Below, one piece after another: positions 27,420 to 64,000 of a stretch of DNA of 64,000 nucleotides. Within the stretch, counting starts at the first letter, position 1. Every line of letters begins with the position of its first letter. This DNA comes from Pocillopora damicornis (taxonomy: Eukaryota). Under the pieces are notes generated by a model. It saw nothing but the letters and a program-made list of their open reading frames with translations, did no database searches and was not told the DNA's origin. A program made the position numbers and the translations under genes. The stretch spans positions 186,001 to 250,000 of the forward strand of contig NW_020846595.1 of the NCBI RefSeq assembly GCF_003704095.1, written 5' to 3'.

Positions 27420-28583
27420 TTATGATGATCGCTTCTTGCAGCACATGGGTGGACAGGCTGGTGGACAGACTGGGGCGGGAGCGCAGCATTGTGGCGTGCA
27501 GGGTGGTGGGCATGGTGGGGCAGGCACGACTATTGGGGGAGGAGCCGGGACTGGACATGGGCAAGGTGGTGGTGGTGGCATGTATTCCCATACGTGTTGC
27601 TGGCTCTGAACGGTGGCTGGTGGAGGTGCTGGCTGAGGAGGAGCAGGCATAGCTGGAGCCTGAGGTCCCATATGGTGAACGTGGTGATGGTGGATGTGGG
27701 TGGTGTGGTGAATCTGCTGTGGTGGGGGAGGGGGTGGTGGTGGTGGGGCACAGCAGTAAGTTGGGCAAGTTGGTGCACACATTGGGGCGGTGCATTGGTA
27801 TCCGCATGGGATGGCTCCTCTCTTTTCTGTTGAGATACAACGTTATACTTTGGGTCACTTCATCGACGACTTCATGTGGTATAACTTTACACTTCTGTTA
27901 AAATCCGTATATTAGTGTAAGAACAAATATGAGTAATTTTTAAACAACTCATGATATTAATTTTGAATGATTTTCCCTGGAGACTACTCCAACCCATGAG
28001 AAATTCTACAAAAGCTGTGTCTATAATCATTTTCTAACTTTGTCACCACTGTCATCTTAACTTTACAGAAAAGTCTCAAAACCTTTACATGCAGCAAGAG
28101 GTACTAGGAATAGTAAAGGCGAAGGTCGTTACAATTTTACTTATAATCACGTGGTTATTCAACACAGGTACTGCGACATCACACAATTTGTTTTGAATTG
28201 TTCAGCTTACTGTCTTGTGTCGTGTAGATAGCAGTACATGGAAACTTTTTAAGAAAGTAAACTAAATGGAGAAATTCTGTTTAAAGGATTTTTTTCGCTC
28301 TAAAGAAGCGATAAACTGTCCAATATCCCTATCAATTGTGATTTGAAACCGTGACAACACAAGCATGAAATATTAACTGATTTCCTCTGACCTTAGCGAA
28401 ACCCTAGAGTACAAGTTCGCTCCGGATTTCCTCAATCCTTCGCGATTAGCATGATAATCAAGAAGAAATTCTACTTTGATTATTACGTAAAGAAGTAAAG
28501 CGAATTCGGTAGTACGCACCTTTAAAAGATTTGGCGCTGACGCACACGACGGCGGCTAAAAGGAGAACAACAAGACGGGCCAT
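27420..28583 (-). CDS. Minicollagen-type CRD/polyproline protein with His-rich insert, no collagen helix (gene CPP-B)
   Basis: Exons 28583-28520 (MARLVVLLLAAVVCVSAKSFK) and 27826-27420, giving EKR-GAIPCGYQCTAPMCAPTCPTYCC-polyP-QIHHTTHIHHHHVHH...CPPACPPMCCKKRSS*. 5'UTR donor at ~28873; AATAAA (minus strand) at ~27161. Confidence 0.9.
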
Positions 28584-31008: not shown

Positions 31009-32531
31009 TTAATCGTCATCATCGTCTTTGTCGTCTTTCTTTTCTTCCTTCTGTTCCACAGCCTTATCTGATTTTTCTTCCTGTTTATCTTCCTGTTTCT
31101 CTTCTTTTGTGTCTTCTTGTTTATCTTCCTGTTTATCCTCTTGTTTCTGCTCCTGCTTCTCCTCCTCATTGTCCTCCTGCTTGGCAATCTCCTCTTCCTT
31201 CTTTTCTTCCTGATCATTGACGTCATCGTCATCATCAGCATTACCAGAGGCTTCATCCTCGATCTTTACCTTGTTCTTCTTACAACAGGCCACTGGGCAG
31301 GATGGTGCACACGTTTGGACACATGGGGGAGGGCAGGGTGGAGGTGGTGGTGGTGGGTGGACAATGTGGTGGACAACCTGGTGAACGTGGTGGATTCTCT
31401 GGGGAGGAGCAGGAGGGAGACAAGGAGGTGGGCAGGGTGGAGGTGGAGCAGGAGCCCATTGGTGGGAGTGATGGTGCATAACACTAGCGGTGTGGCATGG
31501 TGGAGGGCATGGCAGAGGTGGAGGTGGTGGAGGAGGTGGCAGCATATGGTGATGTGTTACATGGTGGATGTGGTGAACAGCCTGAGGGGGAGCTGGAGGG
31601 AGGCATGGTGGGGGGCATGGTGGAGGAGGAGCAGGTGCCCACGCATGACTATGAGAATGTTGCACACTATGGGTCATACAAGGTGGTGGGCATGGGGGAG
31701 GGGGTGGTGGGCATGGAGGGGGACAAGGGGGAGGACAGGGTGGTGGGCACGGTGGGGGTGGTGGTGGGGGACAGCATGTAGGAGGACAAGGAGGTGCACA
31801 TGACACTGCACATGGGCCGGCGCATTTCTTGGATCCTGGACTGGCCTTAGCTGCAAGATAAAAAAACGAAAATATGAATAATTGCATTCAATTTAAAGAC
31901 TAATTCGTTCTTGTAACGCTTTGTGCCGTTTATCACGGGTTTAATATGAACCAAATGATTATTTACACATTTGGCTTTGCGTAACAGGTGGTACACGGTG
32001 GACTACATGTGGCAAGAATTTTTCAGTTTCCTTTACAAAATGTGAGATTATATAATATATATATTTTCTGTCCACTTTTGCCTCTAGGTTCAATTTTTTT
32101 AAAATAATATCATTGTCAAAACTAAACAAGGATGCTACAAATACCAAGGATATGTTTTGAAAGTGTCCTATAGATCTCTTTGTCTCTCCAAGTGGAAAGA
32201 TCAAGATCTGATGATAAACACACAATTACAAGTCGCGAATTACCAATTCTTGCCTTAGATGAAGGAAAGATATCCATTGACATAATTTCTGACATTTCGG
32301 TTTCTTCGAAAACCTTCGATCAGAGTTTACCCCAGTATCTCTTTTATCTCGGGAAGTGATATTCTAAAAGTGATCGGTTATTTCACAATTCAAAATTCTG
32401 TCACTAATTTAAATTGAATTTAAAACTGAAAGCTTACCTTTCTTGATTTTATTAGCTTTTGGATGTTTGCCGGCTTCTACGAAGACAACGGCCGCTATTA
32501 AAAGACAGACTAACAGGGCCTTTGTAGCCAT
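31009..32531 (-). CDS. Minicollagen-type CRD/(CPPP)n protein with four His-rich blocks and an acidic tail, no collagen helix (gene CPP-C)
   Basis: Exons 32531-32438 (MATKALLVCLLIAAVVFVEAGKHPKANKIKK) and 31850-31009. N-terminal CRD CAGPCAVSCAPPCPPTCC, C-terminal CRD CPPPCVQTCAPSCPVACC, then a ~85 aa D/E/K/Q tail. 5'UTR donor at ~32893. Confidence 0.92.
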
Positions 32532-36309: not shown

Positions 36310-38694
36310 TCATGAAGATGAGCCGCTGCTTGCATCTCCCGACGAAACCAAGAAATCACTGCTTCGCAAAAAGCCTTGCTCACTATCATCCTTATGAGCT
36401 TTTTTATGCGTTGCCAAAGTTACTTTCTTTGCTGTCTGTTTTGATTTCACCTGCTGAATTTTAGACCTCTTACTAGCTTCATAGAGAGCGTCCTCATCAA
36501 GGTCAGAAGTTGTTTCACCTGACGCAGACTCAGAGCCTTCAGCTCCACCCGACACCTGCGCAGATTCAGGTGCTTTTGTGGGAGCAGCAAGTTTGGGAAG
36601 AGGCGAAATAATAAGCGCTGCCATTTCCATTCGACTCATGTCTGAAATAAAAGACAAATAGTATCGCTGTAGATATAAAGATTTTCAAGTGGGCGTATGA
36701 ACACGACGTTGTATTTCTTGGAAAGGTAAAGTTAATTTGGATATTTGTGATCAATTGATGGTTTCTCTTTGGGCTAATGCAGCTTAGAACGTAATACGAC
36801 AAAGTGTTCAACGAAAAAAGCCAGCCATCATTTTCCATGACTTTGAAGAAAAATATAGCTATACCGTCGGAAAAAAAAAATTATAAAAAAACATTTTGAT
36901 TGATATGTTACCTGCAGTCCTTTCATTCCACTGTTGCCACAGAGGCTGCAAACTAGCTGGGATGCGAGGAGCGCAGGTCAGAGGTTGACAGGTGTGAGTA
37001 CATGGGCTGCAGACTGGTAACGAGCATTGAGCACACGTGTTACACGGACTACACGGGTCTGGTGGAGCCATGTAAGGACTCGATGACATGAGATCCGGGA
37101 CTCCCATACCAGGGGCATATGCCGGGGGAGGCTGGGCTGAGAATGTGATAGATATTACTGATATGAGATTTAGTCATGCTAAAATCCAGTAGATTTATCG
37201 TGTATAATTAGAGAGGTTAAGCATTGCATTCACGGTGAACAGCAGTTATTGAAGTTGATGTTGTCTGTTAGGGTAGGCATGAAAGTGATGTACATTCAGA
37301 GTGAAGAAGGGATCCTTTTACGATTTCTCTTCAGAGATCGATAAATCATTATGAGGAAAGTAAACAGAATTGGAAATAATTTTTGCCGTTTGACACTCTA
37401 ATCTTACTCAACAACTCACAGACAAACCCAGAAAAGTTAGAAATAATATCACTCACCATAAGGAGCTGGGGCATAGGCGGCCGGAGCTGGAGGGGGCTGG
37501 TAACTAGCTGTAAAGAAAATTTACCCAACTTCCAATGACATAAAAAGTTATCCTTAGATAGAGAACGAAAAAACGTCTTTAATTTACTGAACACATTATT
37601 ACGGGTAATTGGCGCTCTCAGATCAACCAAATGGTGGCTTTTTCTGTTCGATGGGATCTTTATGAGAGAAAAATGGTTGTGGTTTTTTTTTATCTAGCTA
37701 TTAATAGGGTAATTCTCTGCTTTTACTTAGCAATTTTCTCATAAAGTGAGACCTAATTTACTTTGGGAACATAGTGCATCATTGGAGAAGATGATCTGAA
37801 CAGGGACCCTTAGTAAAAGGAAAATTCGAAATACTAAAACGAATTTAATCGTTTAAAAATTTCGCCCAACGTAAATCCACATTTACTTACAACTCTACTT
37901 GAAAAACGTTTTAGCGTTTTAGCACGTTAGTAATTCTTTGTCAAAGCTCCCATGATTATGATCACTTTCACGCCTATAATACGTTCACTGATGGCAAAGA
38001 ATAAGCAAAGATCTTACTCAAGCGCTACATGAAAAAATATGTTAAAAGCACAAAGTAACTATGGACACAAGTTTTTATCTTATTGTGACAATTTACTTAG
38101 ACTACAATACGGCTCCAAATAACTCACCTTGACTAAATCCCGCAGCAGGAGGGGCCGGGTAAGGCACTGTAACAAAAACCCAATAATACCATGAGATTAC
38201 AAACAATACCAACAGCAACAGCTTCAAAGATCTTTGAAAACGACATTAAAGCACATGTAAACACCTTGGAAAATAAACTGCGGTAATTGAATTATTGACT
38301 GGAGCGGACCAGGTGAAGATTGGACTATCGGTTGTGCTGGCGGCTCGCGTTTTTCGCTTGCTATTGATACCGATATAAAATTACCAAAAATATCAGTCAT
38401 GGAAATTAATCCGTACACGAAAGATCAAGACTCATAAACTCTGATCTATCCATTAAAACGAGCTTAAACCTTGTTCATTAGGCTTTGAATGGTATTTCCA
38501 AAGATCGTACCACTGAAGTGACGGAGCTGAAAAAAATACGAAAAATGATCAAGAGTTCCGACTCCTAGGCACATTTTGTTGAAAAAAAATCTAGCCAATT
38601 TGGTATTCGATACTCGAGTTGAAATACCTGCAAAAACAAAATTTAAAAACGCAACAGAAACAATAGCAAAAATTTCCACTTCGGAATTCCTCAT
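36310..38694 (-). CDS. Secreted Pro/Tyr-rich, CxxC-rich, Ser-Gly-rich protein built from micro-exons (gene F)
   Basis: All-phase-1 exons: 38694-38628 (MRNSEVEIFAIVSVAFLNFVFA, putative signal), 38526-38470, 38360-38265, 38166-38128 (VPYPAPPAAGFSQ), 37507-37457 (ASYQPPPAPAAYAPAPY), 37136-36912 (DPCSPCNTCAQCSLPVCSPCTHTCQPLTC), 36641-36310. The 5' end is uncertain, and the gene may be joined to gene E. Confidence 0.7.
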
Positions 38695-39332
38695 CGTGTC
38701 GCCCGAAGTTTCATCCAGATCAAAGCTTCCAATCTACAAAATGTTTATTTTTATGTCAGGTTACGTATTTCCCCTAAGTGTCTGTTTTGCGGGTAGATAT
38801 TAATTTTAACTCCACGTGATTGGTTGATGAAAATCAAGTCATAATAGCTCTTTTGGGATGACATTACGCGCTCAAAGCAGGACGTGTTAATTGATTTATC
38901 GAACCCAAATATATTTTCGCCCCGGTTACGCAAATAGCAAGAAAAAAGAAATGAACGCTCAGTTGACACAAGAGAAAGATCTAGAGTTATTGTAGGCCAA
39001 AGTTTCAGGAAATATTCAGGCTTTTTTTCCGTTTAGCAATTTCTATGCTGAAAAAATTAGTTATATAGTTACTTTTCGAAAAGAACATTCCTGAAGATTA
39101 TCTCCACTGCAAGTTTAAAATCCCTGGGTTTTCCTCTAATTAGTTAGTCTTTTTTTAAGTTCATAGCCAGAACAAGAAATTATAATCTCTTGGCCAGTAC
39201 CATAACAAACGATTCATTTTCACTCTTTAACCTGTAGACGTTTAAAGGTGCCATTATATTCTTTGCCGAAGGGAAGAGCCTTTTAAGAACCTGTGGACAA
39301 CAGCTACAACCTCTAAACATCTGAGACAACAA

Positions 39333-42300
39333 CTAAACATCATCAGCCTTCTTAATTTCTAGCCCTTTCTTTGTATCGCACCTTTGCAGAGTGATGAAAA
39401 GAGACATAAGAAAGAAAAAACTTCGAACAAAGCTTCTATTTTTTAACCTGTCACCCTGATGAGTTAATTCAATTGTCAACCAAGGAGTACTTTGCTGCTC
39501 ATTAGGGCTTAATAGCAGAACTGAGAGAAAGTTATTTTTAACTTCGACATAACGGGACATTCCAGATCCGAAATATTTGAGATACTCAGTCTTATTTCTT
39601 CTCAAAAGGAAATCTAACTCCTCGGGTCTATAAAAGACTGGTGCTTCTGCCTTATCACCTGGATTTAAAAAAAACACTTGTTTATTGTAATTCACTACCG
39701 CCCAAAATCGAATGCGTCTCCGGGCTTTGGAGATGCGGTAGAATTATAGCTGGGAAGAACTGGACTGGACTCTAAGTTCAAGCCCCGCCCCGCGTCATTT
39801 ATTTGTGTTCTTGGAAAGAGGTCATTTTCTCCCCCAGTCCACTCTCCACCCAGGAGAATAAGTGGGTGCTAGTAATCTGTCAGAGAAACCTGACGAAATT
39901 CTAGGGGAGGGGTAGACTCGGGTGGATAAGCATCCAATCCATGTGCGAATAGCAATACTTCGTGTCCCTTCTTCTGATCGAAATAAGCTGCCGGAGACCA
40001 TTTAAAGCAGTCTCGAATACAGACCTCATTTTACCCATCAGTTTACTTACCCGGATTATTCACGCAGTCGTAGTTGACATCCAAATACTTGTTAGCGTCC
40101 GGGCACGCATCGCCAAACCAGTCATTACTCGCAGCCAAATCACAGCCCTCCAGACCATCACACCGTTTCTTCACCTTTTCGTAAGTTCCAGGAGTGCGGC
40201 AGAATCCCACCGGCATCGGATTGTTTTCCTTTAGGCAACCGACATCACCCATGTCACCAAAATCAGCATTTAACACCCTTATCCTATGTTCGGGCGGGCA
40301 AGATATTTTCTGTATCGTGTCTTTGCATATGATGGCTCTTTGAGATGGGGCGGAAAAGACTCCACTTTGACGAGCTGAAAAGAGAGGTAAGACAGGAATC
40401 AACTTTTGTCAAAATCGGCCAAAATAGTTCGATGGCGCTTATGAGGCAACGCTCATTCACGATAACCATATTGCAGTTACAAACCGAATGCGATCTTGCC
40501 TTAGCCAGGCGTAATCTTCCGCCAGGTTTGCTCTTGATACTTATTTTTTTTGTTTGTTTTCCTTGGAGTGCTTGCGTAAAAAAGTCCTTTTTTTTGTTGT
40601 TGTTTGTTTTTATGGTAAGTTTAAGATTAAAAATATAATTCGAACGTTTAAAACACTGCATCTGACGATGATTTTCTGATGCTTAGCAACGAAGCAAGCC
40701 TCAGGTCGAGTTTAAGCTAGATGTAGAATGTAATACACAAACAGATATTGGACAACATTCGACAACCTCATAAACTTTTTAAAAAACTCTTAACTCTTAC
40801 TATTGGCAAGATAGGCCAAGGCTTTTTCTTGTTGCTGATCGGCAGCATATTTTGACTGCGCCTCGGCCATTTGTTTGGTCTCGTCTATAGGGGGATTTTC
40901 ATTTTCTTGAGCAGCGGAATCACTTCTTTGCGTGTCACTATCAAGTGGTGGGGGCACATCTGCATCAATGTCCTCGACTGTTTCAGGTTGTTCTTCCTCG
41001 TTTTGTCCCTTCTGACCATCTTCTTCATCTTTAACACTGTCACTGTCAGCTTTTTTAGAAGTTTCATCAATTGCTTGTGCTTCTTTAACTTCCTTTTGAG
41101 GCTCGCTGGCAAGTTTCTCTGAATCGATTTTCGTTTTGTCATCATCACCTTGGACCACCTCATTGTCTTTACTATCTGATTTTTCAATAGGTAACTCTGA
41201 TTCGCTGCCAGATGCTTCTGCGTCACTAATTTCCTGGCCACTAGCGATCAGTTCCCCGCTTGAAGCAGCAAGAGCTTCCTTGACGTCATTGTCACTTATA
41301 GTTTCGTCATCGTCCTCGCTATCGTCGTCATCAGTACCTTCGTCTACAGCATCATCACCTGATCCTGCTTTGTCAATATCATTGCTATCTAAAACAAAGC
41401 AAGTTGGAACATATTAGGATAACGTATCATGCTGAATAAAACAGTTAAACTACAGAGGGTGAAAGAGTCGTTATAATAATGCTTAGGTTTGGTAGACAGT
41501 AGCTTGTAGCAAAGTACTAAGCTTAAGTTTTGTCATTTTTATTTCTATTTTTACATTCATTTAGTACGTAATGGGCCGTCGGTTTGTAGCTTTCTCAAGT
41601 GAATGTACATGTCATGTCTTCCGTCGTACTTTCCTGACTCACTCAGTGCAGTCGAAGGCGTGAACCTGAACCACCTCCTCTGTCAGCAAAGTTTGTTTTC
41701 AGTTATCGTAGTGGATCATTGTAAGATGCTGTTCACGGAATGTCCACGTAGCGTCTAATTCATGTGGTGTCCTCATGATCACTCTGAACAGTTCGTCCAA
41801 TTCATAGAGAATTCGAAGCGCTTAAAAAGTGGATTTGTCTTTCATGATGATTTGTCTTTTATCCCTGTGATGTACATAAAATGACTTAAGCGATGGTTCT
41901 GTCATTTGTATTGTGTCCCTCTTAGAGTTATTGTTGTCTTCATCTGTCTTGAATTGGTTGCTGTCATCTCAAGAGTAAAGTCTTTGTCATAATATCTTGT
42001 AGGGAAAACACAAAGGCGATGAGACCATGTAAAAAAGCGAAAAAACTATTAATCTATTAAACTATTAATTTCGATCTTTATTCATTTTTTACTTGTTTGA
42101 GCCGTAAATTTTTTTTGGGAAGTGATCTTCGATCACTCAATTTTTTTATTTCTATTGAAATTTCTGTCGAAGAAAACTCTTCGAACAGTTATTTTGTCTT
42201 TTGCTCAATTGTTTGCTACTGGTGGACGAAAAGTCTCATCGCACATCGTGTCAACTACTCACCATCTCCTTGCAGCAGACCAGCGAAGTACAAGGCTGAT

Positions 42301-44705
42301 TTATAAATATCAATGGCCTGTTGACGCGTCAAGTTCATGGGAAGGCCTGGCACTGGAAATGGAGGCATATTTGGGTTATCATTCGTGCCTGCTAACATGA
42401 ATGCCACTTTGGAAATATCGTCTCTTAAGTCCTTTTCGTCATATCCGCTTCCACGTCCGCTGAATTCCGGCTCTGGCTCTTTCAGGTCAGCCGTATCATC
42501 AAATTCCGGCTCTGGTTCTTTTAAGTCAGCGTTATCATCCATGTCGTAAGATTCGTCAAATCCAGACCCCGAGCTACCAGAGCCGGAAGTCGGAATATCA
42601 TTCGGAAGAACGAAAGGGGTCTGAATGCTTGGGGTTGTACTCTTTGTGACAGTTTTGATGGGAAGTTTTATTTGCATCGAAGATGGCTGAGGAGACAGCA
42701 TACCGTGAAATTTACCCTGCATAGCTTTATCATTGTCTCGGAAATAACTTGTCACTGGAACGTTCTTCACCTGATCTGCAGGGACTCTATCACGAACGTC
42801 TTTTACGACTGGAAAAGCACTCTTTGGCATCATTCCCGGATAATTTTCTTGGTGACCAGGACTTGCTGTGTATCCACGCGTCCATCCTTGTTGTTGGTAG
42901 CTTGAGTACCATGGAAGGCCAGAATACCGTCGGTAGCTAAGTTTGCTGTGATCCATAGGTTTCTGAATGTTACGCATGTGCGGGTAGGATTGTTGACTAA
43001 TATCTGTCTTTTTAACAGCTGAGGATTGACCTGAAACTTTCCTAAAATTTTCGACTATTTCTGGGCTGAAAAAGCCAGGTGGAGGCCAGTAAATTGTATT
43101 TTTCCTATCCAAATTTGATTGTTGTCTGTAAACGTTTGTGATGATACCACTTTGATCTTCCTTAGAGGTTAGACCGTCGTTGAGCGAGGTAGGAAACATG
43201 GATGCACCAGTATCCCCTAGGTTTGTCGAATAATTAGAAATTTGTTTGGTTCCATTTACACCGGAGGCTGATAAAATTCCAACTGACAAGTTTCTTGTCG
43301 ACGGATTTCCCACCGGTTGATCTTTACTCGATGGGTTCCCTGTTGATAGGATTCCCGCCAGACTTCCAGTCAGTTGTTCACCCATGGGTCGATTCCCTGC
43401 CGTAATAACTCCCGCCAATTGTTTTCCTGGCGACTGATTTCCCACCAGTTGATTACCCACCTGCTGCTTTCCCGCCACAATATTTCCCGCCAGTTGAGTT
43501 GTCAGCGGTGGATTTCCCGCAAGTTGGTTCCTCTCCAAAAAATTTCCCGCCATTTGGTTTCCCACTTGGAGATTCGTCATTTGTCGATTTCCCGCCAATA
43601 AAACTCCTGCAAGTGGATTTCCCGCCATTCGGTTTCCCGCCAGTGTGTTACCCGTATAGCCAGCAACCGATGGAACATATGATCGTCGATTGTTTTGATC
43701 GTGTATTGTTTGATTCTTTTGATTAATGATTCTTAACGGAACTGTTGTGCTGTTTAAATCGGATTGGTTCCGCGAAACTAAACTTGCGCCAGTTTTTATA
43801 CCCTTTGTCTCCGGAATAAATGTTCTTCGAATGTTTTGATCGCTTCCTTGATCAACCTGGCTCAAGTTCTGTAACCTTTGAGCTATCAAGTTGTAGATAG
43901 CCGCGTATTTATCACTACTTTTGGCTGCGAAAAAATCAGACCCTTTCAAACATGGCTGCCCACTTACTTGTAGCCTGTGAGTCGATATCTATAAAGATAG
44001 CTTAATGGAACGTACGGCTTATTTGCATCAGACCTTACTGGAAATAAACTCACATTTAAGGATTTTTCCTGGAAAATTTATAAACTTTTTCTCAATTTTC
44101 ACTTTTTTTATTTCTTTCGTTCAGCTCCTAGACGGAAGGGAGAATGGGCACCAGATCTCGTATGACCTCAAATTGACTTATTATCCCATTACACTCCCGA
44201 ATCCACAATCAACCAGTAACACAAGCCTAGCTCGTTATAGTAAACGAAAATTGAGCTGGCTGTCGGATTTTTCATGTCATTTTGTCACAAGTATTCCAAT
44301 AAATTTTGTGCAACTTCCAGAAGATATAATTCTGTACGCCTTTTTCTTCATTCTCTTTTGCTGGCCACCTGTGTTTTTGCTTGTTTATACATGAACAGAG
44401 GTCACTAAGTCAAAAAAACTAAAACAAGATCTCAGGGATTTTGAGAAGGATGAGAAAACAAATTCAATGCTTGGTTTCAAATCACATACACTTAAGTGAT
44501 TTTAGTTGATTGTGGAAATTGGAAAGTGTTCGGTAAATGTTCCTTGTAGAAGGCCTACTTTGGCATGCAGGTATGATAAACGGGCATTTACAAAAACATA
44601 GTCTAACATCTTACCTCCCTCAATTGGCATCGAGGAGGACGGTCGGATACCAAAAGCCAATAGAAGTCCAAACAAAAGCGCCACAAGAAATCTGAGACTA
44701 GGCAT
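39333..44705 (-). CDS. Large secreted low-complexity/acidic protein with a C-terminal SUEL (rhamnose/galactose-binding) lectin domain (gene E)
   Basis: Exons: 44705-44615 (signal MPSLRFLVALLFGLLLAFGIRPSSS), 43988-43968 micro-exon, ~43882 (or 43924)-42263, 41388-40801 (acidic), 40374-40051 (SUEL: C..ISCP..IRV.NADFG..C..C..VKKRCDG..C..ASNDWFGDACP..KYL.V.YDC) and an exon starting at 39658. The 3' end is uncertain; an in-frame stop lies at 39333. Confidence 0.75.
39725..40035 (+). mobile_element. Degenerate tRNA-derived SINE (intronic)
   Basis: Decayed B-box-like gttcaagccc and central ctctccacccaggagaataagtgggt typical of cnidarian SINEs (from memory). A related 3' fragment lies on the opposite strand at ~55224-55306. 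Confidence 0.55.
43330..43655 (-). repeat. In-frame 15-bp/pentapeptide repeat x-(L/M/V)-(A/V)-G-N within gene E
   Basis: TLAGN RMAGN PLAGV LLAGN RQMTN LQVGN QMAGN FLERN QLAGN PPLTT QLAGN IVAGK QQVGN QLVGN QSPGK QLAGV ITAGN. Confidence 0.85.
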
Positions 44706-46204
44706 GACAAGTTGGGTGGTAATGTTCCCGGATTCAAACGACGATGAAAATAGGTTTTCTTAAACCTACAGGACCAAGAAAAATAATGTCAAACAGGTAA
44801 TGAACAAACAAGTAACATAACTACAAAACAACCCAGTTTAAGTCCTTGTGCCAGAACGGAAGACATCGAACTAATTTTACATATCTTGTTTATACCTGTT
44901 GATCTCTTAGCTCGAATGGCTAAAAAAAGTTAAAACCAAGATTGTCAGAAAAGTCCCCTAGTTGCTAACAAAATGCTTGCTCAAAGCTTCAGAGGTTAAA
45001 AATGACTGTGATCACCGACGCGTAAACTTCTGGGTGTCAAAACTGGTACGCCTTTGAAGTTGAATGTCAACGAGACAGCTCAACCTTTCAGCAAAAACGA
45101 GAACCTTAAATGCAAGAATTACCAACGTTTACCTTTATCCGTGTGTCTTGATTCCAAATTTTGTTGAAGGGGAATTATTTTCACTTACAACATTTTATTT
45201 TCGAAACAGTCTAACATCCACCAGAACGCTTGAACGCACCACAAGGAAATAACTGAAGTAATCTTTACTGGTGCCGTGGCGCCCCTACAAATCAGTGACA
45301 TAATATCCGAGTAATTCTAATTATAACTCGCAAGTTGATTGGTCGGGTTTTGCAAGGGTTAAAGCAAGCTGACACTTAAGTCTTAGCAAACACAAAAGCT
45401 TTTTTTCGCATCATTTCCTCTAAGTACGATTTTAAACGATTTTTTATGGCCAAAATATCAAGTGTTAGAAACCTCTCAAGCGTTTGAGAATATTCTAAAT
45501 CCTGACAGTGGGGAGTAATCTGCGTTCCCTTCTCGCGAATTGATTGGTTCGACAAACTGAAGCATGTTGTTGATTTCAAGGAAGTTGCAACCGATTTCAA
45601 CACGAAAACTACTTGATCTGTACGTTCAATGAAACATCGACAGATCGGACGAGATACATCTCAGTTTTTTTCTTTGTCCCGTGCTCGTGAATACTTCATT
45701 TAATCCTCAAATATCAAACTAGAGTTTTGAGCAGGGCTAGCTTTAGGTTTCCGGTAGGTAGTGGCGGACGACCGGACAACCGGTGTCATGAGTGTGATGA
45801 CATTGATTCACGTCGGGCAGTGAGATCATTACTTTGAGTCGCGTTTGTGGCTGTTAATCATAATTTTGTTTCAGTCTTTTTTAACATTCGCAGGCCTTTT
45901 TTTGAAGTGAGGGCGGGTTATTGAACGCAAATTTGAAAAGCTAAATTAAATTTTGCAGTAATTGGTTTGAACCCAGTAGCAATAGACATTCCGTCAGTCC
46001 GTTTGTTCAAGACTTCAACCATTTCTTTTTCTAAAAAAAAAGGCAATTTTTAGGCACTTTTAAATTTTTTCTTTCTAGGAGTCTTAATTCAGAATTTCAC
46101 TGGTGTTGTAAAGCGCCTTTAAACATTAGGATACTGGCGCTGTATAAATCTTTTATTTATTATTATTATTATCATTATTAGTATTAATATTACTATTATT
46201 AACA

Positions 46205-47982: not shown

Positions 47983-60484
<12,502 letters not shown>

Positions 60485-60702
60485 TTTGGAAAACGTGCAG
60501 CTAACGTTAGGAGGAAGACTGAAACGAGATTTGGTTGTCTAGTCCCAGGGCTACTCAAGCAAGACGATAAATCACTAGTCAGCGGAATTTCCCTTTAGAG
60601 GTATTTTGCAATATGGCGGACCATTTAGGCGAACACGTGTAATGAGAGAATTCGCTTCTTCGTTGGTCTGAAATAACCTCATTATTACAAAAAGCCGAAG
60701 TC
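60485..60702. promoter_or_regulatory. Bidirectional promoter region between EFTUD2 and DHX37
   Basis: The two ATGs diverge with only 218 bp between them. A YY1-like AATATGGCGG lies at ~60610-60619. Confidence 0.75.
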
Positions 60703-63685
60703 ATGGGTCGCATGAGGCAGAGGCATAACTGGAAGGCAAGGTTGCAGCCAGAGGCTTCGAAAAAGGACACGAATTCAGCGCTTACTGATGACCAGAAAGG
60801 TGTTTTGGAAAAGACTACGGTAGATGACGACTACAAATTTTCCCATGACGATTCCAACATTCTCGTCGCCCCGAGTAAGAAAGGCAAAGTTAAGGTAGCC
60901 ATTAAGAACCCAATTGATAAGCGAAAGAAGCTAACAAAGAAACAACGAAAAAGACTGGAAAAAATTGTCGAGACGAAGAAAAAGAAAGCTAAGCGAGCAG
61001 AGTTACTTAAAGCGCTCTCCGAGTATGCTGTCAGTGATAAAGAGTTGTCTCAAATGAGTTCTACGACTGATCTAGGCCAGTCTAACACAACAAAGAAAAG
61101 AACGATTTCGGAAGTTGAAGAAAGTGCAGCCAGAAAAGTAGTCATCTCAAGTGTTCGCTGTGGTCGTAAAAAAGGCAAAAGACTGCGATTAGAGAGAAAA
61201 GCCCTCGATCCTGCTTCTGCTAAGATTGCAAAGACGATAGAGGAAGAAATAGAATCTGGAGAATCATCAGAAAGCGAAGAAGAGGATGGAGGTAACCCCG
61301 ATTCGTTGCAGGAGGAGAATCTACTCGCGGAAAGTTTACCTTTGAATGAACAGACTACAGACATAGAGGAAAAAGATGAAAACAAAAGTGATCGTTCAAA
61401 ATCTAAAGAGGATGCAGGGGAAAATTCTGCAGAATCAACAGTTAAAACGATCTCAGAGAAAGTGGAGACCGTAAAAAAGGAATCGAAGCCGGCAATTTTC
61501 ATGGAAGTAAAGAGGAACTCAGAAATTCAGACTGCAAGGCTTCAGCTTCCGATCCTCGCCGAAGAGCAAGCTGTTATGGAAGCGATCCACGATAATGACG
61601 TAGTTATCCTTTGTGGTGAAACCGGAAGTGGAAAGACCACTCAAGTACCTCAGTTTTTATACGAAGGTGGATACACTACACGAGGACTGATTGGCGTGAC
61701 AGAACCACGCCGGGTAGCTGCCGTGACAATGTCACGTAGGGTAGCACTAGAGCTGAATATGAGTACCGAGCTGGTGTCTTACCAGATTCGTTATGAAGGT
61801 GACGTGACAGAAAATACCATCATGAAATTTATGACAGATGGTGTGCTACTCAAGGAAATTGAAAATGACTTTTTCTTGTCAAAATACTCGGTCGTTGTGA
61901 TCGACGAAGCCCATGAGCGAAGTGTATTCACTGATATTTTAATGGGACTGCTTTCAAGAATAGTTCCAATGCGTAAAACTCAAGGTAAACAGCTCAAACT
62001 TATCATCATGTCCGCCACACTTCGTGTGGAAGATTTTACAAGTAATACGCGTCTTTTCTCCATCCCACCCCCGGTTGTGACCGTGGAGTCCAGACAGTTT
62101 CCTGTAACTGTACACTTTAATAAGAGGACGCCAGATGACTACCTAAATGAGGCATTCCGTAAAGTTTGCAAAATCCACCGCACCCTACCCCCGGGAGGGA
62201 TATTGGTGTTTGTGACAGGTCAGGCCGAAGTGCACGGTTTATGTAGAAAGCTGAAGAGAACATTTCCTTGCAACCTGCGCAAGGAAAATTCGAAACAAAA
62301 GGTAGATGCAAGCGATGAAAACTCAGGTGATGATGAAGATCACTTCGATCTTGATAGTTATTCCGTAAACCCGGCTGTGGAAGATAGAGACGCTGAAGAC
62401 GAAGATCTTGGTGAATACAACCTCAACGACAACGACAGCGATAGTGAGTTTAATCTCGACGACGGCGCGTTTACGCCGTCGATCGATAAAAATTTACCCA
62501 TGTTTGTTCTGCCGTTGTATTCGCTTCTCTCGAGCCAACAACAAGCTAAGGTATTTCAGCCACCCCCCGACGGGACTCGGTTGTGCGTCGTAGCGACCAA
62601 TGTAGCAGAAACGTCGTTGACAATTCCCAACATCAAGTACGTAGTGGACACGGGCATGGTAAAGAGGCGTTATTACGATAAAATCACTGGAGTGTCTTCT
62701 TTTAAAATCACGTGGACATCCAGGGCCTCAGCCAATCAAAGAGCAGGTAGAGCTGGCAGAGTGGAGCCTGGACACTGCTATCGTTTATATTCTTCGGCCG
62801 TGTTTACCAACGACTTTGAAGAGTTCTCAGCACCTGAAATATCACGTCGTCCAGTGGAAGACCTTGTGTTGCAGATGAAGGACTTGAACATTGACAAAGT
62901 AGTAAACTTCCCCTTTCCTACTCCGCCTGACCTAACAGCGTTGCAAAGCGCAGAGAGGTTGCTGTTAAATCTAGGCGCGCTGGAGGAGAAGAAGACGATG
63001 AAGGGAAATGTGAATGCAGTGATTACTCCTCTTGGACGCGCCATGGCTAAGTTTCCTGTGTCTCCGAGATACGCAAAGATGCTCTGCCTGGGGCATCAGG
63101 AAAATTGCATGGAATACGTCATCGCTATTGTATCCGCTCTCACGGTGAAAGAAATCTTTGCAGATGACAATGACAGAGAAACGAGCCAGGTAACAAAGGA
63201 AGATCTGCGAAAGATATCTCGCTTGCGGCGGACTTGGGCAGGTCAAGGTGACTCCCAGAAGCTCGGAGACGCGATGGTTCTTCTTAGAGCTGTTGGGGCT
63301 TGTGAATATGCCGGCTGCACAGAAAAGTTCTGCTCTGAGAATGGACTTCGTCACAAAGGAATGATCGAGATCAGAAAGCTCCGTGCCCAGCTTACAAACT
63401 CGGTAAATCTTGTCAATGCTGATGCAAAAGTGATGCTTAACCCTCGGATGAGCCCGCCATCACCCGCCCAGTGCGTTGCCCTTCGGCAGATATGCCTATC
63501 GGGCCTTTGCGGCCATGTAGCCCGCAAGAACCCCACAGGAAATGACCCCCAACGAAAGAATGCTTACAGCTGCATGTCCCTGGGTGAGCCTGTCTTCATT
63601 CACCCATCCTCTGCGCTCTTTGAAGTGTTACCAGAATACGTGATTTATCAAGAAATCGTCGAGACCTCAAAACTTTTTATGAAAG
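60703..63685 (+). CDS. DHX37: DEAH-box RNA helicase DHX37/Dhr1 (kurz), first coding exon; gene continues beyond the window
   Basis: N-terminal [13 protein letters not shown], then [61 protein letters not shown], an HA2 region and FIHPSS. The ORF ends at a GTTAG donor (63686) before the C-terminus is complete. Confidence 0.95.
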
Positions 63686-64000
63686 GTTAGTCTGTAATGG
63701 TTTGAAAGTGTTGTCAAAACGAAACTACAAGGAAGGAAAACTTATTCATGACAGTGAAACTAAGAACAGGCCTTATTTTACTAAGATATCTGTCGCGCAG
63801 GTCAGTAGGCCAAACGTATCCCACCTCCGCGTCTCAGTGCGGCGGGAAATTCTTTGCGCCGATTTCTTTGAGCTCGCGGGCCCGATTAGCCCCCTCTCCC
63901 CCCAAGAACTTTTTACCCTCTGGATTGAATGCAGGCATTAAAAAAGCATTGTTAAAGTAACTACATGACATGTCCATTGCATAATGCTGCAAGCCAAGGT

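Follow-up and report, generated by a model that had tools for sequence, protein, structure and literature searches.

Which product is encoded by the minus-strand locus around positions 36,310 to 45,260 of the window, a 64,000-nucleotide (nt) stretch of the Pocillopora damicornis genome (assembly GCF_003704095.1, contig NW_020846595.1, positions 186,001 to 250,000), and could it serve the cnidae as a proteoglycan? A first-pass annotation, made from the sequence of the window, had proposed a chondroitin-bearing core protein fused to a SUEL lectin and involved in cnida morphogenesis. The sequence comparisons reported here indicate a real, uncharacterised hexacoral proteoglycan candidate, for which a cnida role is plausible. 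We tentatively favour, at somewhat less than an even chance, a secreted, mostly disordered scaffold of the developing cnida vesicle that would bear glycosaminoglycan (GAG), a reading which joins two separate claims. The first, that the protein carries at least one GAG chain, is probable on the sequence evidence; for the second, that it is made in cnidocytes, the chances appear evenly balanced.

The structure of the gene was established from exon joints in RNA contigs of four runs belonging to three studies; the depth of these contigs cannot serve to rank genes or isoforms, and no expression level was taken from it. A single splice chain (44615>41388, 40801>40374, 40051>38166, 38128>37507, 37457>37136 and 36912>36641) was recovered in all four runs. 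All joints are GT-AG, every coding intron is in phase 1, and the spliced reading frame gives, without internal stop, a main product of 549 amino acids (aa), the length also of an independent transcript-derived protein (P0001). This product comprises, in order, a signal peptide, an acidic region, the SUEL domain, a Pro/Ala/Tyr linker, a motif of eight cysteines (8-Cys motif), a helix and a Ser-Gly/Lys tail. Its entry into the secretory pathway is predicted from a hydrophobic N-terminal exon, judged by eye, that is in frame and conserved. The limits first proposed for the gene, 40051..43988, missed both ends: in 4/4 runs a splice joint links the donor at 40051 to 38166, and 43988 is just the beginning of an open frame, the real acceptor lying at 43924 and the ATG exon (44705-44615) outside. 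The SUEL domain (PF02140, E 6.8e-18, above the Pfam cut-off) was correctly recognised and wrongly taken to be terminal; it is internal, because 40051 is a donor and the frame continues through the downstream exons to the stop at 36310. The acidic exon, estimated at about 195 aa, was found at 41388-40801 (588 nt, 31.8% Asp+Glu), and all four Ser-Gly peptides quoted in that annotation are in frame on the minus strand, the first two of them in a cassette exon that is skipped in 4/4 runs. Two further exons suggested by splice-like motifs, a 21-nt mini-exon at 43988-43968 and one near 41970, had no RNA joint and were dropped. At 43371 and 44429, contigs of all four runs match up to that point and continue into unrelated sequence; these breaks are probably repeats or other transcripts with a short common stretch. 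The public P. damicornis model pdam_00008166 (P0002), to which the window exons are 100% identical over its residues 385-505, lacks the opening third of the acidic exon, joins the alternative-start exons behind the SUEL domain, in conflict with the RNA joints, and is therefore mis-spliced.

Three splice forms of the gene are shown; the cassette-inclusion and alternative-start joints rest on a single RNA run apiece and on other species. The cassette (43924-42263) was skipped in all four runs, and both of its inclusion joints, which would give a product of 1,103 aa, were present in one of them (X4) with sides of 29-30 letters, weak by themselves. A counterpart of the cassette occurs in a contig of another coral (L018) as a 475-aa open frame with 39% identity and both Ser-Gly clusters; NCBI models of Oculina exist with the cassette (891 aa, start inside the exon) and without it (570 aa), and an Acropora model takes in its end. 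Within the exon lie [AV]GN repeats of low complexity, a pair of Ser-Gly clusters (42444-42587) and a conserved C-terminal segment (42273-42308). The repeats number 11 within 42264-43922, spaced mostly by 5 or 10 residues, and a duplicated 14-residue acidic unit lies between the two clusters. An internal start (38694-38628, 38526-38470, 38360-38265) leads to a 288-aa form that lacks the acidic region and the SUEL domain and opens with a second hydrophobic leader. Its joints were found in one of the four runs (X1); a transcript from another coral (L017) contains the same spliced form as one complete open frame, and exons 2 and 3 of this form are conserved in four genomic loci. No Pfam domain other than SUEL was detected in P0001 or in the orthologue from the anemone Nematostella (LOC5521307, P0248). 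AlphaFold2, run on an alignment of seven sequences, gave no confident fold (mean predicted local distance difference test score, pLDDT, 38.9), the helix at residues 200-229 being the only stretch near pLDDT 70. The ESM Atlas matches for P0001 were confined to generic SUEL clusters below 0.8, and there was no usable match for the Cys/helix part of the Nematostella protein.

Enrichment of Ser-Gly was assessed by shuffling sequences in 40-aa blocks. The 549-aa form (P0001) has nine Ser-Gly dipeptides versus 4.0 expected (p=0.0096), five of them acid-flanked versus 1.8 expected (p=0.026). At p<0.05, Ser-Gly was enriched in 9/9 proteins and acid-flanked Ser-Gly in 8/9, these nine being not independent, with several near-duplicates and about five lineages; P0213 also passed. 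The Nematostella orthologue has seven acid-flanked sites versus 2.1 expected (p=0.004) and three copies of [ED][GA]SG versus 0.17 expected (p=0.001), a motif described for chondroitin attachment in C. elegans (PMC8418075); the xylosyltransferase XT1 requires Ser-Gly/Ala and favours an acidic context (PMC5992326). The strict motif is carried by 8/10 family proteins versus 8/131 other SUEL proteins, although the latter are folded lectins, ill suited as controls for a protein that is disordered and acidic. Moreover, in an alignment of six coral sequences, Ser-Gly columns were invariant in 6/8 cases in the acidic region (other columns, 23/156) and in 8/8 in the tail (other columns, 38/82), although alignment programs anchor on short motifs; the Acropora row of alignment A3, misaligned in the acidic region, was left out of the count. 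The genome searched (G000) encodes a xylosyltransferase domain (Xylo_C, PF12529) on contig C1619 and chondroitin synthase (CHGN, PF05679) on C3972 and other contigs. Since the sites are enriched and conserved, and genes for both enzymes are present in the genome, GAG attachment at the acid-flanked Ser-Gly sites is likely, and the proposal of a GAG core protein holds at the level of sequence. Repeated Ser-Gly runs such as those of the cassette are said to favour heparan sulfate, so that "chondroitin" as the chain type is not established.

The main evidence for a role in cnidae, which it makes plausible, is the adjacency of the gene to CPP-1-like genes in this coral. Three neighbours (A, B and C; Table 1), whose exons were read from DNA, encode predicted secreted Pro-rich proteins, with collagen in none of the exons read. 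CPP-1 is a Hydra capsule-wall protein of the same build (PMC6910907), and the Nematostella "minicollagen-like" proteins, two of them expressed in spirocytes, also resemble the neighbours (PMC12549020). A general DNA pattern for six-Cys domains was overwhelmed by microsatellite matches (at least 447 matches versus 121 in the control), and a tighter pattern, CxxxCAPxCxxxCC, was therefore adopted. It gave 32 matches on 10 of 4,393 contigs and none in the control; the nearest lies 4,498 bp from the stop of the gene, and the regions within 10 kb on either side of all matches make up 0.16% of the genome (234 Mb), in a proximity test that was post hoc. The cnida part of the first-pass proposal is circumstantially supported, by these neighbours and by the Pro-rich plus Cys-rich build of the protein. 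Furthermore, on contig C1392 the start of a SUEL domain stands in one frame with six-Cys domains and a similar Pro/Ala/Tyr linker, possibly encoding a fusion of a cysteine-rich domain (CRD) with SUEL.

Beyond the limits attached to these comparisons, several observations weigh against a GAG-bearing cnida scaffold. Attachment motifs are by themselves ambiguous (PMC8418075). The 549-aa form has just one [ED][GA]SG (p=0.12) and the Ser-Gly motifs of the cassette include none, 2/10 family proteins lack the motif altogether, the acid-flanked sites of P0208 are borderline (p=0.06), and total Ser-Gly is not enriched in the Nematostella protein (15 versus 11.2, p=0.13). P0001 has neither Gly-X-Y nor the six-Cys CxxxCxxxCxxxCxxxCC domain, which is present in neighbours A and C, and a housekeeping gene with an EFG_C domain is about equally near on the upstream side. 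No named medusozoan orthologue emerged from the word and profile searches described below, which were incomplete, and the work on chondroitin was done in Hydra. Those searches gave no named octocoral orthologue either; both absences are weak evidence, because the full-length coral proteins themselves were missing from what the profile library listed.

A secreted proteoglycan acting elsewhere, in epidermal cuticle or mucus, mesoglea, egg coat or a granin-like matrix of gland granules, with no link to cnidae, is somewhat unlikely, although the GAG evidence fits it equally well. The canonical capsule CRD is absent from the protein, chondroitin and chondroitin sulfate occur in the Hydra cuticle (PMC3531485), and chondroitin sulfate is borne by acidic granule prohormones (PMC8418075). 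Against this stand the three adjoining CPP-1-like genes, the linker and Cys-rich motif that recall cnida proteins, and the Hydra cuticle study itself, in which no large core protein was found (PMC3531485).

A structural cnida protein devoid of GAG, in which the Ser-Gly dipeptides would be flexible spacers or sites of O-GalNAc or phosphate, appears quite unlikely. It would share the genomic neighbours, and it agrees with the single strict [ED][GA]SG of the main isoform and with the presence of a few Ser-x-Glu motifs, two to five per protein. However, Ser-Gly order is kept beyond what composition and the neighbouring columns would give, and the Nematostella protein has more copies of the strict motif than expected.

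The distribution of the gene bears on a further alternative. Orthologues were found in Pocillopora, Oculina, Acropora, Montipora and further corals, family members making up 5/29 and 6/79 candidates in the word searches, and the 549-aa product groups with P. verrucosa in a cluster of 67 members. Among the best 150 of 2,335 matches of the profile search, 19 were assigned to the family, as fragments, and the remaining 131 to other SUEL proteins. One of the fragments, EDO49050 from Nematostella, led to the full-length LOC5521307 (1,498 aa; one of four candidates), which aligns from the SUEL domain through linker and 8-Cys motif to the helix (39% across 325 columns, E 3e-53). Judged by these alignments, the gene is at least hexacoral-wide. 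The acidic exon has no significant alignment with the Nematostella protein, and the cassette aligns weakly (best E 0.08-0.24), a positional resemblance not counted as homology; other tandem repeats occupy a position in the Nematostella protein like that of the cassette repeats. The 8-Cys exon and the end of the cassette had one match each in G000. The Acropora cervicornis orthologue (P0004) is labelled "Latrophilin Cirl", yet has no receptor domains in Pfam. Accession searches turned up no publication about the gene or any orthologue (the matches listed were to the bare number and unrelated), and a term look-up in PMC6161364 and PMC13581030 returned no passage on it.

Because Nematostella is an anemone without a skeleton, the gene predates the coral skeleton, which weakens, as an ancestral role, the skeletal-matrix function named as an alternative in the first-pass annotation. 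An acidic protein of the skeletal organic matrix, binding Ca2+ at the calcifying front, is accordingly improbable: the acidic exon is rich in Asp and Glu and unaligned with the anemone protein, so that a coral-specific recruitment would be possible, but the gene is not confined to calcifying corals. We know of no protein with SUEL plus an 8-Cys motif in the published coral skeletal proteomes, which also counts against a skeletal role.

The first proposal had drawn an analogy with nematogalectin, and the SUEL domain was compared with its closest structures, rhamnose-binding lectins (RBLs) and latrophilins, all of which have Cys-Glu and Tyr-Gly-Arg wherever these positions aligned. In the window, the equivalent of Glu42 is Lys (40322-40330) and that of Arg65 is Asp (40253-40261). 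Among 14 family sequences, two of which are the same Nematostella gene, the first Cys is followed by Lys in ten, Gln in four and Glu in none, versus Glu in 305/379 control SUEL domains (those of 440 with the Cys aligned); the Arg65 equivalent is Asp in 14/15 family sequences versus Arg in 341/379 controls. In the latrophilin RBL, the dissociation constant for rhamnose rises from 1.8 mM in the wild type to 141 mM in E42Q (~80-fold weaker), E42A and E42R abolish binding, and Arg65 has a structural role as a buried residue (PMC2430599). Since the required Glu is absent in 14/14 family sequences, binding of rhamnose or galactose is doubtful, and the domain is probably a pseudo-lectin, or a lectin for another ligand. 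An active rhamnose- or galactose-binding lectin that recognises microbes or symbionts from a long acidic stalk is highly improbable: the Pfam score, the closest structures and a retained lysine of KYL speak for it, and the substitutions of Glu and Arg65, with the effects of E42Q and E42R in the latrophilin domain, against it. P0001 contains no run of four or more G-x-x; without Gly-X-Y collagen the protein is not a nematogalectin, and the lost sugar-binding Glu weakens the analogy further.

If the protein is a GAG-bearing scaffold of the cnida vesicle, a Golgi xylosyltransferase would prime some of the Ser-Gly serines, and the resulting GAG would make up a hydrated layer of polyanionic character. 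Anchoring or oligomerisation of the protein may fall to the 8-Cys motif and the short conserved helices, and the SUEL fold may bind protein instead of rhamnose or galactose. With the cassette included, the protein would gain Ser-Gly clusters; made from the internal start, it would lose four Ser-Gly sites together with the SUEL domain, the isoforms altering the number of sites. Non-sulfated chondroitin has been reported as a sheath of the nematocyst tubule, with nematogalectin and minicollagen (PMC9205923, PMC4195985). A narrower form of our reading, that the gene, within a cluster of cnida-structural genes, encodes the core protein on which hexacorals build the chondroitin sheath of their cnida tubules, in nematocysts or spirocysts, is unlikely as it stands. 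It would have the skippable 554-aa exon and the internal promoter tune the GAG load by cnida type, as a cnidarian counterpart to the splicing of versican, and the sugar-blind SUEL domain dock the core protein to capsule proteins. We found no paper naming a cnida chondroitin core protein in a search that left the primary Hydra papers and supplements outside, so the gap is not proven; the gene, with its Nematostella orthologue LOC5521307, offers a concrete candidate for such a protein. Even with no role in cnidae, it would be an uncharacterised hexacoral protein of proteoglycan type that public models miss or misname, combining a pseudo-lectin SUEL with an 8-Cys motif of no assigned class and with isoform switching that is conserved.

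Several known systems share parts of this architecture. Lecticans such as versican combine a lectin-like domain with a large, alternatively spliced exon carrying GAG sites; the coral protein has no link or C-type lectin modules, and the likeness would be one of analogy, not homology. Like the nematogalectins, a family defined in PMC4195985, it is cnidarian and has a signal peptide, one SUEL/gal-lectin domain and several isoforms per locus (PMC4195985, PMC9205923), but it differs in its internal SUEL, its long acidic Ser-Gly regions, its 8-Cys motif and its tail, as well as in the missing collagen. It resembles C. elegans CPG-12 (C-type lectin domain protein 180; PMC8418075) in being secreted, with a lectin-type domain and [ED][GA]SG present, whereas its domain is a SUEL with no sequence homology seen, and attachment, proven in C. 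elegans, is here predicted. As in CPP-1 and the minicollagen-like CRD proteins (PMC6910907; PMC12549020), a Pro-rich linker stands beside a Cys-rich motif, but with eight Cys spaced 2,2,2,4,2,3,4 instead of CxxxCxxxCxxxCxxxCC, and without long polyproline. The key Glu is likewise substituted in EVA-1, PKD1L2 and C. elegans Lat-1, whose RBL domains do not bind carbohydrate (PMC2430599); unlike these membrane receptors, the coral protein is predicted to be secreted, and its Arg65 equivalent is also changed to Asp. By analogy, it would work like the lectin-domain proteoglycans, with CPG-12 and the exon switching of the versican type as parallels, while being a member of none of these groups.

Table 1. 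Features of the gene, its Ser-Gly sites and the neighbouring Cys-rich genes (window positions)
Feature	Position	Strand	Evidence or remark
5' untranslated exon	45131..45260 (upstream end approximate)	-	joint 44763-45131, 3/4 RNA runs
Start-codon exon (ATG at 44705) with predicted signal peptide; donor in phase 1	44615..44763	-	RNA joints; kept in orthologues
In-frame cassette exon, 1,662 nt	42263..43924	-	RNA joints, L018, Oculina X1/X2 models
Ser-Gly cluster SGSGSSGSG	42561-42587	-	cassette
Ser-Gly cluster FSGRGSG	42444-42464	-	cassette
Acidic exon, 196 codons, four Ser-Gly sites, conserved predicted helix at end	40801..41388	-	RNA joints
Ser-Gly site KAGSGDD	41351-41371	-	acidic exon
Ser-Gly sites ASSGELIASG/EASGSESE	41195-41266	-	acidic exon; one [ED][GA]SG at 41195-41218
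SUEL/RBL domain exon, internal	40051..40374	-	Pfam, PDB matches, RNA joints
Alternative first coding exon, second predicted signal peptide	38628..38694	-	joint 38526-38628 in X1; L017, L018
Short isoform exon 2	38470..38526	-	X1; 72-78% identity in L017, L018, L019, L022, L024
Short isoform exon 3	38265..38360	-	X1; conservation in other coral loci
Pro/Ala/Tyr linker exon, 39 nt, common to all isoforms	38128..38166	-	joints, 4/4 RNA runs
Pro/Ala/Tyr linker exon, 51 nt	37457..37507	-	joints, 4/4 RNA runs
8-Cys motif exon (spacing 2,2,2,4,2,3,4), start of conserved predicted helix	36912..37136	-	RNA joints; one match in G000
Last coding exon: conserved helix, Ser-Gly sites, Lys-rich stretch, stop at 36310	36310..36641	-	RNA joints
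Tail Ser-Gly sites	36514-36555, 36322-36345	-	last coding exon
Neighbour A: predicted secreted, Pro/His-rich, two CxxxCxxxCxxxCxxxCC domains, CPP-1-like	31009..32531	-	sequence
Neighbour B: predicted secreted, Pro/His/Cys-rich, variant Cys spacing	27420..28583	-	sequence
Neighbour C: predicted secreted, polyproline, three CxxxCxxxCxxxCxxxCC domains, CPP-1-like	21096..23173	+	sequence

Among the three neighbours, two are His-rich, and A has a long acidic C-terminal tail past its last Cys domain; an assembly gap of N at about 23478-23577 lies between C and B. On C1392, six-Cys genes of capsule type flank the SUEL exon on either side (G000:C1392:91811-108613; L025, L026), and the frame at 93457-93981 (minus strand) contains Cys domains, a Gln/Pro/Ala/Tyr linker and a SUEL start with Cys-Glu intact. 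Long six-Cys arrays were seen at G000:C570:139251-140984 and 191344-192555, with at least 10 and 12 domains, and further six-Cys clusters on C2024 and C2983.

Elsewhere in the window, the end of the EFG_C gene, presumably that of the spliceosomal GTPase EFTUD2, lies at 47985-48861 on the minus strand. Exons at 2535-8247 (plus strand) encode three VWC domains and match WSC weakly, in a secreted gene of matrix type. An intron-free open frame of 1,014 aa at 60646-63690 (plus strand) encodes a DEAH-box helicase, which we take to resemble DHX37.

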